In this document: in pieces, positions 51,386 to 60,585 of the stretch
How positions within the stretch are numbered: the stretch's first letter is position 1
How the letters are laid out: every line of letters starts with the position of its first letter
From: an uncultured Chthonomonadaceae bacterium
GTDB lineage: Bacteria; Armatimonadota; Chthonomonadetes; Chthonomonadales; Chthonomonadaceae
Length of the DNA stretch: 64,000 nt
Direction of reading: 5' to 3'
NCBI GenBank assembly: GCA_963835065.1
Contig: CAWIEK010000011.1
Coordinates: 64,001-128,000, forward strand
Program-made: the position numbers and the translations under genes
The notes under the pieces: generated by a model
What the model was told of the DNA's origin: nothing
What the model saw: the letters and a program-made list of their open reading frames with translations, nothing else
The model's database searches: none

Positions 51386-52507
51386 CTAAACAGGAGAAGC
51401 CGCGTGCGGCTTCTCTATTGCACCGGAGCGTTCAGCTACAGTCTGTGCGTTCTCTAGCGGTTTGACGATACAACGATCTATAACTCTTGGATCATCGGGG
51501 TTTTTTGGCACACGGACAATCGCGGCAAACTCTCTATCCCCTACAGGTCTGCCGTCCTTATCCTTGATGTTGTAAAGTTCCTCCCAACACTCGGCCAGGT
51601 ATTTCCCCGCTCCTTCTGTTCCATCTGCGCCAACGCCCGCGATGATGACCCAAGTTTTCTCATGAATATCACTCCCCGTCGGATGAAATTTGAGAATTAT
51701 GCCATAATCGTTTATGGTGTCGTCTTTGTACTCCCGCAACTCATTCACTGGCTTATACTTGGGACAGTCCCAATCCGGGTTTTTCAGTGTAAGATGCCCG
51801 CCTACAGGAGCATCATATTCCTTCTCGAAGAACTCTTCTGCTCCTCTTCTTAGACTAGAATCAGTGAAGTAGTTGGAGAATAGCCCGAACATTATCAGGT
51901 TGCTGTCTCGCCCTTTCATTTCTATGAGGTCAGTATCTGTCAGAATTTCAGGTGTTTCTTGTGACATCTCGCCTATTAAAGCAGCTACATAACCTAACGC
52001 CTTCAAATCCTGCAAAGCTGCCGTTTCCGTGTGGTCGAAACTCACATTCTTTAATGCTGAGTTAGGCCGTTCACGAACTTTTTGCGAACGAAAGAAAGGC
52101 AAACAGTTGTGAATCGAAAGCTGAAACAGGCCAGTTTGATGAAGTGGAACGGGTGTCCTACCAGGAGAAGGCATTTGAGACGTAGGGATGGTGGGCACAG
52201 GTACAAACTCCGGGAAGATAAGGCGAACCTTACCCGGCGCGAAACGCCCAAAGAACATCTGCCTGAACATCCGCCGCCTTTTGAACATGGGTACGAAATC
52301 GAGCAACAGAACTACCAACTCAAAGGTGGCAGCGGTGAGCAAAGCTATAAATATACTGTAGAAGGGTTGCTGAATCGGCTTGCAAAGTGACAATCCCACG
52401 CCGCCCAACACTGCCGCGCCAAGCAATGCAAAGAAGCGGCTCTTCCCAAACCGTGAGCGTTTTAAGTCTTCCAACAGTATCCGCAACTTCATTGCCATCC
52501 CTGCCAT
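51386..52507 (-). CDS. hypothetical protein with two N-terminal TM helices
   Basis: 373-aa ORF, visibly more AT-rich than its flanks. C-terminal DYGIILK...IIAGVGADGTEGAGKYL. Confidence 0.7.
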   Translation of the reverse strand: MAGMAMKLRILLEDLKRSRFGKSRFFALLGAAVLGGVGLSLCKPIQQPFYSIFIALLTAATFELVVLLLDFVPMFKRRRMFRQMFFGRFAPGKVRLIFPEFVPVPTIPTSQMPSPGRTPVPLHQTGLFQLSIHNCLPFFRSQKVRERPNSALKNVSFDHTETAALQDLKALGYVAALIGEMSQETPEILTDTDLIEMKGRDSNLIMFGLFSNYFTDSSLRRGAEEFFEKEYDAPVGGHLTLKNPDWDCPKYKPVNELREYKDDTINDYGIILKFHPTGSDIHEKTWVIIAGVGADGTEGAGKYLAECWEELYNIKDKDGRPVGDREFAAIVRVPKNPDDPRVIDRCIVKPLENAQTVAERSGAIEKPHAASPV

Positions 52508-52872: not shown

Positions 52873-53646
52873 TTAAGAAGGTGTCTTGTGGCGTGTTTCT
52901 TCCGAACTCAGGTTGCGGAAGCGGGGCCAGCGTTTCAGGTGTAAAAACGTCAGTCGGGCAAAGAATATCTTGATGAGGATGTTCTTCGTTTTGTACCACA
53001 GCGTGGCGTAATTGCGGGCAGGAAGGGGTGGCGTCTGCAGCGCGAAATCGAGCGGCGGAAAGTACGCATAGATGTTGACCGCGCCCAGCGCCTCGTACTC
53101 CTCCACGCCCGCATAATCGCATGGGGCTGCTTCCATCCCGGCCAGATTCCGCGCGGATTCGGTCAGCAGCAGGTATTGTTTCGCTTCGAGAGAGTTTTTC
53201 AGCAGACGGTGGATTAAAATCACGTCCGTTCCCGCCAGTTCGGTAAAGCGGTCAATGCGGTGCATCAGGGCGGTTCCGACGTGCAGCAGGATTTTCAGGC
53301 GCAGACATTCCGTATGGCGGCAGGCTTCGCACTGACAGATGTTGGATTGCGACAGTTCCCGCAGTTTGCCATCGAACGCGCGGAAAAAACTGTCCATCTT
53401 CGCCAGCACGTCGCGCATCTGCAAAGCCGCCGAAGCGGGGTCGAGTTCGCAGTACAGAAACACGGCGTCGCCTTCCAGCTTGGCGACCACGAGCGGCATT
53501 TTGGCTTCGCGCAGCACGGTTTGTATCAACTGCGTGATGATGATTTGCCCGTGCGCCAGCGCCTCTTTATGCGACACCATGAACTGCGTATACCCGCTGA
53601 TGTCGCACATAGCCAGCAGCACGGATTTTGCCTCGTTCGCCACCAC
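52873..53646 (-). CDS. DUF2652 / class III nucleotide-cyclase-fold protein
   Basis: DISGYTQF, KLEGDAVF, CQCEAC and LAGTDVILIHRLLKN. Confidence 0.8.
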   Translation of the reverse strand: MVANEAKSVLLAMCDISGYTQFMVSHKEALAHGQIIITQLIQTVLREAKMPLVVAKLEGDAVFLYCELDPASAALQMRDVLAKMDSFFRAFDGKLRELSQSNICQCEACRHTECLRLKILLHVGTALMHRIDRFTELAGTDVILIHRLLKNSLEAKQYLLLTESARNLAGMEAAPCDYAGVEEYEALGAVNIYAYFPPLDFALQTPPLPARNYATLWYKTKNILIKIFFARLTFLHLKRWPRFRNLSSEETRHKTPS

Positions 53647-56807: not shown

Positions 56808-56896
56808 TGCTTGACGCGCCATAGAAAATTCGTTGCAATGAAACAGGAGCGATGAAAATTTGTCTTGTTTGATGCGGTTGCGGAGGCTGTTGAGCG

Positions 56897-57232
56897 ATGG
56901 ATAAAATAAATGAGTATGTGCAGATCGTGAAGCGCGTGATACAGGATGTGGCGGACTATGTGCCCGAAGAAGAAGGCGTTCGCAAGGAAGTTATCTTTGA
57001 TGACGCTTCCGGGCATTACCAACTGCTGCAAACCGGCTGGAAGAACCGCCGCCGGGTTCACGGCACACTGGTTCACATTGACGTGCGCGATGACAAAGTA
57101 TGGGTAGAACACGACGGCACGAACTTAGAGATAGTGCAGGATTTACTGGACGCGGGCATTCCGCAAGAACAAATCGTGCTTGGCTTTCACGCCCCCGAAC
57201 TGCGGCAGTTTACCGAGTTCGCTCCCGCTTGA
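56897..57232 (+). CDS. xisI: XisI-family protein
   Basis: HYQLLQTGW...VHIDVRDDKVWVEHDGT...IVLGFH. Confidence 0.88.
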   Translation: MDKINEYVQIVKRVIQDVADYVPEEEGVRKEVIFDDASGHYQLLQTGWKNRRRVHGTLVHIDVRDDKVWVEHDGTNLEIVQDLLDAGIPQEQIVLGFHAPELRQFTEFAPA

Positions 57233-57466
57233 ACGCGCCTGGGGTCAGGCTTTGAAACCGAACAGGAACTCTGTTGCCCGCAGCCGCTTCCGTTAGCCGG
57301 TAAGGCAAAAACAGCGTATTGTACCGCGTTTTCAACACAGTGAGCAGGAGAAAAGTTGCGCGGCGTGGAAACAATCCGCACAAGCAAGCGCGAACTAATC
57401 CTGACGCTCACTTGTTTCTTGAACCGGGCGTCCGTTGATTTTGTCTGTAAAGGTTAGCCGCATCCT

Positions 57467-58846
57467 ATGAGCCACGATTCTGAGCGTTTTCCATCCGAAC
57501 TTGCCCACATTTTGTTCATGGACATTGTAGGCTATTCCCTGCTGCTCATAAACGACCAGAGGCGTGTGGTCGCCATGCTGCAAAGCCTTGTGCGCAATGC
57601 CCCGGAGTTCCAGCACGCGCAAGCAGCGGGCAGAGTAATCTCCTCAGATACAGGAGATGGATTGGCGCTGGTGTTCTTCGGCGACCCGACCTCACCGGTG
57701 TATTGCGCGGTGGAGATCGCCCGCGCGTTGCGTGAAAAGCCTGAACTACAGTTGCGCATGGGCATCAACAGCGGTCTGGTGTCGCGCACAACCGACTTTA
57801 ACGGCCATGATAAAGTCACCGGCAGTGGTATCAATATGGCGCAGCGGGTGATGGATTGTGGAAACGCGGGGCATATCTTGCTGTCGCACGATTGCGCAAA
57901 AATCATGCGTCAATTCAGCGAGTGGGCCAACGCGCTTCACGACCTGGGCGAGTATCAAATCAAACATGACCTCACCCTGCGCCTGTACAATCTGTGCATG
58001 GAGCAGGTTGGCAATCCCGCCCCGTCGCAAGCCACACCAAAAAGCGCGCCCCCTGCAAACGCGCCAAAGAACGGCAATCCGCCCGGGACAGGCGGTGCAG
58101 CGAAGCAAAATGCCGGTATGGAAAGCGGCACAGAAAGCAAGACAAAAACCAACTCGGCGGATGGCGCGGAAATGGCGTGGATACCAGCGGGAACCTTCCA
58201 GATGGGCGGGAACGGTGAATACGACGGCAAGCCGGTTCATTCGGTGACATTGTCAGGTTTCTGGATGTACAAAACGCCGGTGACAGTGGCGCAGTTCCGC
58301 ACGTACGATGCAGCGAACGGAAGCAAGTACGACTGGACGAAGAACAAACCGGATTGGGGTTGGCTGGACGAGCATCCGATGGTAAATGTCTCCTGGACAG
58401 AGGCCTCGGCGTATGCGCAGTGGGCGGGCGTCGTGCTGCCGACAGAGGCGCAATGGGAATATGCGGCGCGGGGCGGTTTTGCGGGGAAGAACTATCCCTG
58501 GGGCGATGATTGGGACGGGAGCAAATGCGCCAATTCCGTCAAGCCGAATGACTTGAAGGGCACAAAAGCAGTCAAGAGTTACGCAGAGAATGGCTGGGGC
58601 CTGTATGATATGGCGGGCAACGTGTGGCAGTGGTGCGCGGACTGGTACGACAAAGCCTACTACCAGACAGCGGCGGCCAGCCAGACCGACCCAAGAGGGG
58701 CGAGTTCGGGCACATTCCGCGTCCTGCGGGGCGGTTCTTGGGGCGGCGATTCCGAGACCTACTTCCGCTGCGCGGACCGCGACTACTACATTCCCGACGA
58801 CTGGAACGGCATTATCGGGTTTCGTTGCTGTTCTCCAGGACTGTAA
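57467..58846 (+). CDS. class III adenylate/guanylate cyclase fused to an FGE-sulfatase (C-type lectin fold) domain; probable DGR target
   Basis: LFMDIVGYS, TGDG, RMGINSG, GINMAQRV, then F.MGG, LPTEAQWEYAARG, GLYDMAGNVWQW and RVLRGGSW...GFRC. Confidence 0.9.
   Translation: MSHDSERFPSELAHILFMDIVGYSLLLINDQRRVVAMLQSLVRNAPEFQHAQAAGRVISSDTGDGLALVFFGDPTSPVYCAVEIARALREKPELQLRMGINSGLVSRTTDFNGHDKVTGSGINMAQRVMDCGNAGHILLSHDCAKIMRQFSEWANALHDLGEYQIKHDLTLRLYNLCMEQVGNPAPSQATPKSAPPANAPKNGNPPGTGGAAKQNAGMESGTESKTKTNSADGAEMAWIPAGTFQMGGNGEYDGKPVHSVTLSGFWMYKTPVTVAQFRTYDAANGSKYDWTKNKPDWGWLDEHPMVNVSWTEASAYAQWAGVVLPTEAQWEYAARGGFAGKNYPWGDDWDGSKCANSVKPNDLKGTKAVKSYAENGWGLYDMAGNVWQWCADWYDKAYYQTAAASQTDPRGASSGTFRVLRGGSWGGDSETYFRCADRDYYIPDDWNGIIGFRCCSPGL
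58718..58846 (+). other. putative DGR variable region (VR)
   Basis: Codons between GGSW and GFR are almost all NNC/NNT, consistent with AAC/AAT template codons. Confidence 0.7.
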
Positions 58847-58886
58847 TGCTAACCATTTAACCTTTTACTCTTTTACTCTTTATTCT

Positions 58887-58911
58887 TTCAAGCCGGCAAA
58901 GCCGACTTGAA
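58887..58911 (+). other. GC-rich hairpin downstream of the VR (DGR homing cruciform-like)
   Basis: ttcaagccggc-aaa-gccgacttgaa (1 mismatch), preceded by (cttttact)n. Confidence 0.6.
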
Positions 58912-58997
58912 GAATCGAATTTTGAAAATTTGACGTTGTTTCAGAGTAAAGCCGAATTTTCTTTTCGCGCCGCTATGGGAAGGCAGGAATCAACGCT

Positions 58998-59123
58998 GTG
59001 GCTGGCGAAGTAAGCGCTGTTACGAAAACGTATGAGTTTTTGCTCTGGCTCCTCCCGCAAATCGCCCGCTTTCCCCGCGATCATCGCTTCACGTTGCAAC
59101 GGCGGCGTATTCGGCGGTTGTAA
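58998..59123 (+). pseudogene. avd: truncated DGR accessory protein Avd (four-helix bundle) N-terminus
   Basis: Manual translation from GTG gives MAGEVSAVTKTYEFLLWLLPQIARFPRDHRFTL, then unrelated residues and a stop. Not in the ORF track. Confidence 0.75.
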
Positions 59124-59168
59124 CCCTCGTTCCCGGATGCTCTCGCTCTTGCCGGACTTCGATACTGT

Positions 59169-59503: not shown

Positions 59504-59988
59504 TTAATAGACACCAACGAGTTTAAAAAACAGCGTATCCGCTTCGCCGCATCTATTTTCGGCGCAAAGCAAGGCCGCATAAGCCTCTCGCGCTTGCATG
59601 GTCAGGGCATGTTGTAAGCCGAACGTTTGTTCTCGCAGGGTCAGGGCGCGGGCATACAGCGGTTCCGCCGCCGGATTGCCGCTTGCCTGATACTGCTTTG
59701 CAAGGCTGTAGAGAATTTGCGCCAGCATGGGATCGTTGGCGGGCAGGGCGCGTTCCGCAATGGCAAGCAGGCGCAGATACAATTCCGTCACATTGCCGTA
59801 CTCGGCAGCTCCAAGCCGCGCGAACAATCTCCGGCGCATAGCCTGAACCCGTCAAGCGGTCGAATATATCCGTCATTCGTCACATGGTCCAACTCTTCCT
59901 GGCTTACACCTGCATCAAGCCACTCCTGATCCATCATTTCTTTTGCGCGTTGATATACCTGATCGGAACGGAGTTCTGTGGTTGTCAT
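59504..59988 (-). pseudogene. TPR protein, paralogue of 60016-60546 (two frameshifts)
   Basis: Three frames give WLDAGVSQEELD / DIFDRLTGSGYAPE / IAERAL..NDPMLA..LY, each matching the neighbouring gene. Confidence 0.75.
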
Positions 59989-60015
59989 AGTAATGGTTCC
60001 TTTTTGTCATCCCTG

Positions 60016-60546
60016 TCATACGGGCTGTAAAGCGCGGGTTTTCAGAAGCGCATTTGCTTCGCTGCTGCGGCCTTCCGCGTGGAACTTTTCGATTTGATGG
60101 TCATAAGACTGGTATAGCCGGTTCCGAGCCTCAATAGTGCGGGGATGTTCCAGGCCAAGTGTTTGGCTCCAGAGTTTTAGAACGCGCGTAAAGAGCGGAA
60201 TGGCGGATTGGTAGGCTTGATTGGCGTCGTATCCTATCGCCAGCCGATACCAGATCAGTGCCAGCATGGGATCGTCCGGCGCGAAGGCGCTTTCCGCAAT
60301 CGGCCACAGGGCATGGTAGAACGGCATTTTGTCCGATGTGGCAGGGTACTCGGTTTCCCACACGGCGCGTATGCCTTCTTCGGGGTAGCCGGAACCCATC
60401 AGTCGGTCGAGAATATCCGCGAGTTCATCCCCCTCGTCAAGTTCTTCCTGACTCACGCCTGCTTCCAGCCAGCTTGTATTGATGATTTCTCTTGCGCGTC
60501 GGTAAGCGTCTTCGCTGCGGTTCAATTGGACTTGCTGCACTGCCAT
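60016..60546 (-). CDS. small kinesin-light-chain-type TPR protein
   Basis: LALIWYRLAIGY...AIPLFTRVL...LGLEHPRT. Confidence 0.8.
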   Translation of the reverse strand: MAVQQVQLNRSEDAYRRAREIINTSWLEAGVSQEELDEGDELADILDRLMGSGYPEEGIRAVWETEYPATSDKMPFYHALWPIAESAFAPDDPMLALIWYRLAIGYDANQAYQSAIPLFTRVLKLWSQTLGLEHPRTIEARNRLYQSYDHQIEKFHAEGRSSEANALLKTRALQPV

Positions 60547-60585
60547 AATCACTCTTCTCTTTTCGACATAACAACATCAGCGCGG

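Follow-up and report, generated by a model that had tools for sequence, protein, structure and literature searches.

On balance, we consider it probable that the gene analysed here, which joins a nucleotide cyclase to a domain of C-type-lectin (CLec) kind, is a former DGR target whose RT and template (TR) are absent from the genome assembly, and that its product is a frozen cytoplasmic sensor, bearing one variant of its variable region (VR) and predicted to give a cyclic-nucleotide signal. The gene lies in a 64,000-nucleotide stretch of DNA, hereafter the window, corresponding to positions 64001-128000 of contig C11 in a source genome of 8.0 Mb (71 contigs, 91.9% complete). Positions are those of the window unless another contig is named.

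Architecture of the fusion protein

The fusion gene (57467..58846, + strand) is an open frame encoding 459 amino acids. Its product comprises a class III nucleotide cyclase domain (approximately residues 9-180; 57491..58006, +), a Pro/Ala/Gly-rich linker evident from its sequence (approximately residues 183-230; approximate limits 58007..58165, +), and an FGE-type CLec domain assigned by profile match and related to TvpA (58166..58843, +). The Guanylate_cyc profile matched the frame weakly and over the cut-off (E 2.8e-5), and the FGE-sulfatase profile matched residues 234-455 with an E of 8e-56. The structure model of the cyclase (pLDDT 92.8) matched the class III cyclases Ma1120, Rv1900c and CyaB (PDB 5d0e, 1ybu and 3r5g) with Z scores of 19-21, the best being Ma1120 (Z 21.1, rmsd 1.8 over 158 residues). 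Together with the retained catalytic residues described below, these matches confirm the three-part organization proposed in the original prediction. The cytoplasmic location that it assigned to the protein is in keeping with the sequence, as no hydrophobic segment was found outside strand 1 of the cyclase: the KD19 value peaks (1.56) at residue 10, which the structure model shows as beta strand, and there is consequently no sign of export. A promoter scan upstream of the gene found nothing.

Active site and relatives of the cyclase domain

The metal-binding Asp pair (D19 and D64) and the transition-state Asn and Arg (N123 and R127) are all present and near-invariant in the family (D19, N123 and R127 in 110/110 homologues, D64 in 109/110), which argues for catalysis. 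In these residues and in its fold the domain resembles Ma1120, Rv1900c and CyaB; unlike them, it carries Ser60 and Lys116 in place of the adenine-selecting Lys/Asp pair. The base-selecting positions were placed by sequence alignment to CyaB/Ma1120 and to the cyclase family, in which position 60 is Leu or Ile in 104/110 homologues and position 116 is Asn in 105/110, Lys being among none of the top residues there. Typical adenylyl cyclases select adenine by Lys and Asp (PMC4886424); the canonical Lys and Asp/Thr pair is not present here, and with the non-canonical Ser60/Lys116 combination cAMP cannot be assumed to be the product. Lys116 may reflect decay or a change in specificity, and we count the departure of both residues from the family, which may be decay, against the sensor reading.

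A quick tree, built from 80 analyst-selected rows, makes the domain the sister (SH-aLRT 100) of the cyclase of paralogue P0004, a cyclase-TIR-AAA_35 protein encoded on contig C54, to which it is 70% identical (76% at the DNA level). The two differ with a dN of 0.19 against a dS of 0.81, indicating purifying selection, and dN is well below dS in both domains of the fusion; the end branch of the fusion cyclase is 0.31 vs 0.17 for the paralogue. The subfamily, with 7,298 matches among 7,997 scored candidates, is found joined to TIR/AAA_35, kinase, TPR and Lrp partners and in clusters of several copies. Six further loci of the same subfamily occur in the source genome (contigs C54, C7, C57, C58, C60 and C68), with AAA_35 matches in all and TIR in most. 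Several of the six are frame-broken, and those on C57 and C58 look like duplicates.

With such relatives, the cyclase might instead be mainly a homotypic coupling module, through which the CLec sensor pairs with and triggers the cyclase-TIR-AAA_35 proteins in the manner proposed for EAD adaptors. This would suit the recurrence of AAA_35 and TIR at the six other loci, the variety of fusion partners and multi-copy clusters, and base-selecting residues that are non-canonical across the whole family; EAD logic of this kind is set out in sections of PMC8195603 and PMC10907252. Four near-invariant catalytic residues are hard to reconcile with a purely coupling role, however, and the paralogue lies on another contig, so that we regard this reading as unlikely. 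For a catalytic sensor, candidate receivers of the signal are the 11 cNMP-binding domain matches in the genome; no cNMP-sensing effector gene adjoins the fusion, a point that weighs against such a sensor, and PADLOC gave no match for the locus.

Two other genes in the window deserve mention. A DUF2652 gene (52873-53646, -), of a family proposed as class III cyclase-like, lies upstream of groES and is syntenic in a congener (G002) with 81% DNA identity. The gene at 51386-52507 (-) encodes 373 residues with a hydrophobic stretch at the N terminus; the protein matches nothing in Pfam and scores 0.95 in the Atlas against clusters that are unnamed. By eye, its C-terminal part resembles that of a cyclase-like ORF (C50:50024-51313) near the retron-like RT of the genome, a resemblance for which tblastn gave no confirmation.

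The lectin domain and its variable region

The best PDB sequence matches of the C-terminal domain are FGEs (E 4e-41), and it also matches the DGR protein TvpA (2y3c, E 2e-19). The former would be expected if the domain were a formylglycine-generating enzyme with incidental VR-like codons. Yet the two cysteines of the FGE active-site loop, after the RGGS motif, fall in alignment gaps and are absent, whereas a paralogue on contig C52 keeps both; the avd stub and codon signature described below also count against an enzyme, a reading already largely refuted and to which we give almost no credence.

The VR core, set by the register of TR/VR pairs of relatives, comprises 25 codons (58742..58816, +), and the codons quoted in the original prediction were located exactly at 58742-58813. 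Set beside the closest homologue (63% identical, from genome G020), these 25 codons show the mark of a DGR: codon positions 1 and 2 diverge and position 3 is kept, with identities of 9/25, 11/25 and 18/25, compared with 0.79, 0.78 and 0.51 in the scaffold. Among changed codons, a pyrimidine third base is found in both sequences in 16/17 cases in the VR vs 15/62 elsewhere (Fisher p 1.8e-7). Three other homologues gave p values from 2e-5 to 6e-4 in the same test, a fifth homologue being left out for a frame error. Of 14 codons at which the TRs of relatives mostly read AAY, 14/14 end in C or T against a background of 0.43-0.50 (binomial p 8e-6 to 7e-5, with positions chosen by the analyst from those TRs and the rest of the gene as background), but the score alone is not specific, because 23/25 other FGE/TR ends of the clade, compared after removal of one spurious row, reach 11-14 of 14 in the same register. 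VR codon 21 is TGG, and the codon is AGG in three TRs.

Judged from these codons, one lineage or both underwent hypermutation after the split from the G020 homologue; the divergence does not show present activity, and it gives no date for that hypermutation relative to the fusion. Among relatives, intact DGRs with FGE-type targets have A-biased TR/VR pairs in 7/14 loci examined (mismatches at template A are, for example, 15/17, 17/20 and 8/8), and their TRs have the 25-codon register in common with 58742-58816. The VR core is followed by a constant 3' end (58817..58846, +), likely the IMH, in which 28/30 bases equal those of the G020 homologue and whose last bases match the VR, not the TR, version in an intact DGR (L201); the IMH was placed from homologues, the assembly holding no cognate TR. 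Four contig sets from sequencing runs were sparse and contained short pieces only, none bridging both domains and none near-identical over the VR, and no conclusion is drawn from them.

Remnants downstream of the gene

The pyrimidine repeat, hairpin and avd stub of the original prediction were all found. The pyrimidine tract (58861..58889, +) occupies the same place as in intact DGRs of relatives and runs into a DNA hairpin of 10 bp with one mismatch and a 3-nt loop (58887..58911, +). The hairpin fold has a z of -3.3 for a 37-nt stretch picked by eye; taken over all 155 nt of the spacer, folding is unremarkable (z -0.77). Just beyond the predicted interval (57467..58911) lies the 5' stub of an avd gene (58998..59096, +; 33 codons, the frame continuing to a stop at 59121-59123), which matched NCBIfam DivGenRetAVD over profile positions 3-30 of 104 (E 5e-6). 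The order of stop, tract, hairpin and avd was seen again in DGR loci of relatives (L054-L058, L149, L245 and L246). Of ten intact Avds compared, the five closest have 19-22/31 residues in common with the stub and 21-25/31 among themselves; the two degrees of likeness being about equal, truncation of avd is likely to have been recent.

Deletion in place would have been indicated if the sequence behind the stub were the 3' end of the DGR RNA spacer, but we rejected this idea, since nhmmer gave no match and 0/14 shuffle tests reached p <0.05. As this end is not recognised, the insertion of an already truncated cassette is not distinguishable from deletion of a full DGR in place.

Similar 5' stubs recur behind orphan targets: FGE targets are followed by avd stubs of ~36 codons in L059 (G051:C170) and ~10 codons in L023 (G020:C53). 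An internal deletion in the DGR L055 (G008:C115) leaves ~90 codons of the RT, which continue into the TR's 3' half. A cluster of trypsin/VMAP-MoxR-vWA type in L058 (G012:C469; domain labels by eye) has an FGE-ended last gene and then avd at the contig end.

Search for a DGR in the source genome

Diversification in trans had been proposed for the VR, and the searches of the source genome turned up nothing to sustain it. No cognate TR was found by blastn, and the best non-self match in an A-capped adenine-wildcard scan had 33 non-A mismatches/121, compared with 3 for the true TR recovered in a positive control; an earlier adenine-wildcard scan, swamped by A-rich tracts, found no TR either. A motif scan of the genome for TR-like Asn codons returned 27 3'-type matches and 1 5'-type match, none TR-like on inspection, and none of the TRs fetched from relatives is closer to the VR than 26 non-A mismatches/121.

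The genome has two RT matches, one CRISPR-linked, which scores as group II type, and one retron-like, which scores as a retron RT. The former (C49:678900-685100, L001) lies beside a CRISPR array, between what we take, labelling the genes by eye, to be Cas6-like and Cas1-like genes. Four DGR RT queries found in the genome only this CRISPR-linked RT (27-32% identity) and a 50-residue fragment (E 0.08). A DGR RT query matched 15/121 related genomes, among them neither the source genome nor its two congeners (97% and 80% complete). An intact Avd query matched only the stub in the genome. Full-length weak matches to the Avd profile on contigs C8, C25 and C33 (27-33 bits, cut-off 80) were set aside, as intact Avd did not match them; they are presumably stand-alone four-helix-bundle proteins.

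A second DGR relic is present on contig C54 (126575-128167; L060:4576-6168), where an FGE target, its frame broken twice, is accompanied by dispersed short repeats. It ends with the 3' motif of a DGR RNA spacer, the only match genome-wide (E 0.0085), has no avd, RT or TR, and differs from the fusion gene in its constant bases. The closest FGE homologue, from G020, is likewise orphaned, with a short avd remnant behind it. Two further stretches there are, by eye, what we take to be transposase-like.

Neither a TR nor a DGR RT nor an intact avd is present in the assembly; for this genome, that is the outcome which the original prediction named as its main refutation, and diversification in trans has no support. 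DGRs do exist in relatives. The DGR-diversified lectin of the original prediction thus stands as history, on the codon signature and the avd stub, but not as present diversification. Since the assembly is 92% complete and divided into 71 contigs, a DGR may be unassembled, and a target still diversified in trans from the ~8% of the genome that is missing would agree with the intact frame, the intact cis spacer and hairpin and the barely decayed stub; trans activity at degenerate loci has indeed been reported (in the text of PMC10907252). The empty searches of 8.0 Mb, the lack of a DGR RT match in both congeners, a C54 relic that is also engine-less and has different constant bases, and the distance of the closest relative's TR nevertheless make it improbable. 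A bolder version, which we hold to be quite improbable, would have an unassembled DGR still rewriting the lectin tip of a hypervariable receptor whose class III cyclase, in the same polypeptide and non-standard in its base specificity, signals to, or pairs with, the cyclase-TIR-AAA_35 proteins; if true, it would represent an adaptive-type sensor with second-messenger output.

Origin of the fusion

A segment of 1,934 bp (57233..59166, strand not applicable) that includes the fusion gene and the stub is missing in congener G002, in which XisI is followed by ~37 bp and then by the convergent gene that ends at 59167 in the source genome; the segment is therefore extra relative to that congener. 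The other congener (G001) has no match to the 1.9-kb unit at the same site. No convincing target-site repeat was found around the segment, the longest being 9 bp and inside the flanking genes. Only the last codons of XisH precede XisI (56856-57232, +), where in G002 a full XisH-like gene is present; between the two genomes identity is 58% for the XisI proteins and 98% for groEL. On the other side, short TPR-repeat ORFs (59504-60552, -) are apparent pieces of a longer gene. The neighbourhood, with its XisH remnant and TPR fragments, is a decaying island, which we count against the sensor reading.

The sister relation to the in-genome cyclase-TIR-AAA_35 paralogue suggests local domain shuffling; in the simplest reading of the sequences, it would be through such shuffling in this lineage that a DGR target acquired the cyclase. 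Full-length fusion matches were absent from 400 sampled genomes of the phylum (best 4 candidates scored in each). Both domains occur in 11 other proteins of the 237 fetched, and the tree, in which 11 rows are fusions, requires at least two origins for these. One of them, a kinase-cyclase-FGE fusion, was traced to a single genome (G422, 1/351 genomes), where neither avd nor RT lies within 19 kb, the genome as a whole lacks an RT and the end of the fusion gene is not found a second time; with this one traced of the 11 others, no cyclase-CLec fusion has been seen in a live DGR. Neither FGE, avd nor RT was found near 78 cyclase-matched GTDB loci (of 79, one being the FGE match), nor, within short flanks, near 29 cyclase loci of relatives.

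The same surroundings could have produced a non-functional recombination by-product, with the cyclase added after the death of the DGR and the gene now drifting. Its absence from the sampled phylum genomes, the flanking remnants, the departure of Lys116 and Ser60 from the family and the longer end branch are all compatible with drift, but a 459-codon frame that is still open, a dN much lower than dS in each domain and the existence of 11 further cyclase-CLec fusions that arose separately are not what it predicts, and we consider it rather unlikely.

Proposed mechanism and significance

For the frozen sensor that we favour, the mechanism would be as follows. Domain shuffling in the lineage would have grafted the cyclase onto the DGR target, and with the DGR engine gone the VR would be fixed at one variant. 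Because class III cyclases work as dimers, with a dimeric active site, we propose that ligand binding by the CLec domain would bring together or reorient two cyclase domains; the dimerised cyclase would make a cyclic nucleotide, and the signal could be read by one of the cNMP-binding proteins of the genome.

For this strain the biology is modest, with hypermutation apparently at an end. Sensors with a DGR-diversified CLec domain have been proposed as immune receptors, but the partners they usually have (STAND, vWA-MoxR, caspase) are difficult to assay. The output of a two-domain CLec-cyclase protein is directly measurable, and would thus make it easy to test whether a fused enzyme is switched on when a DGR VR binds its ligand; this value as a test case holds even for a frozen relic. 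The analysis also brings to attention a large, widespread cyclase subfamily with non-canonical base-selecting residues.

Comparison with known systems

Orphan or degenerate targets with signalling N-termini have already been described (PMC7517822, PMC10907252, PMC7159879). The clade-5 DGR targets of multicellular bacteria include 'degenerate' loci (Doré et al. 2024, PMC10907252) and resemble our gene in having a C-terminal FGE-type CLec domain with a VR behind a signalling domain, in loci from which RT or TR has been lost, and in their shuffled N-termini. They differ in the effectors named in that text, which are TIR, CHAT, kinase, STAND and vWA; 'cyclase' has no match in the main text and nine supplementary files of PMC10907252. 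The genome it describes keeps a complete DGR of each class, and none was found in ours. Comparable too are the remote or orphan variable proteins of cyanobacteria, such as Nostoc all3226, for which loss of the machinery after selection has been proposed (Vallota-Eastman et al. 2020, PMC7517822). These likewise combine a cytosolic signalling domain, a CLec domain and a remnant VR with no nearby RT, but as presented there their N-termini are kinases or orthocaspases and their genomes keep a DGR elsewhere.

Among proteins with a cyclase, the closest parallel is a Gemmata massiliana protein with cyclase, FGS, TRADD-N and caspase domains (Kaur et al. 2021, PMC8195603), which unites a nucleotide cyclase and an FGS (FGE/CLec) domain in one polypeptide and for which counter-invader signalling has been proposed. 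In contrast to the protein as given in that source, the fusion here has two domains, a C-terminal CLec with a VR followed by an avd stub, and no adaptor or caspase. Pycsar PycC, as described in PMC11224242, is also a class III cyclase, with non-purine-type pocket residues, and a defence role is possible for both; unlike Pycsar, our locus has no PADLOC match and no adjacent cNMP-binding TIR or TM effector. The best fold-search matches listed include no PycC chains.

A DGR target composed of just a cyclase and a CLec domain was described in none of the literature searched, although such proteins may be listed in subscription papers, in figures or in supplements, those of preprints included, beyond the nine of PMC10907252. 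Orphan targets and a cyclase-FGS fusion are thus already published, and what is distinctive here is the uncommon output domain.
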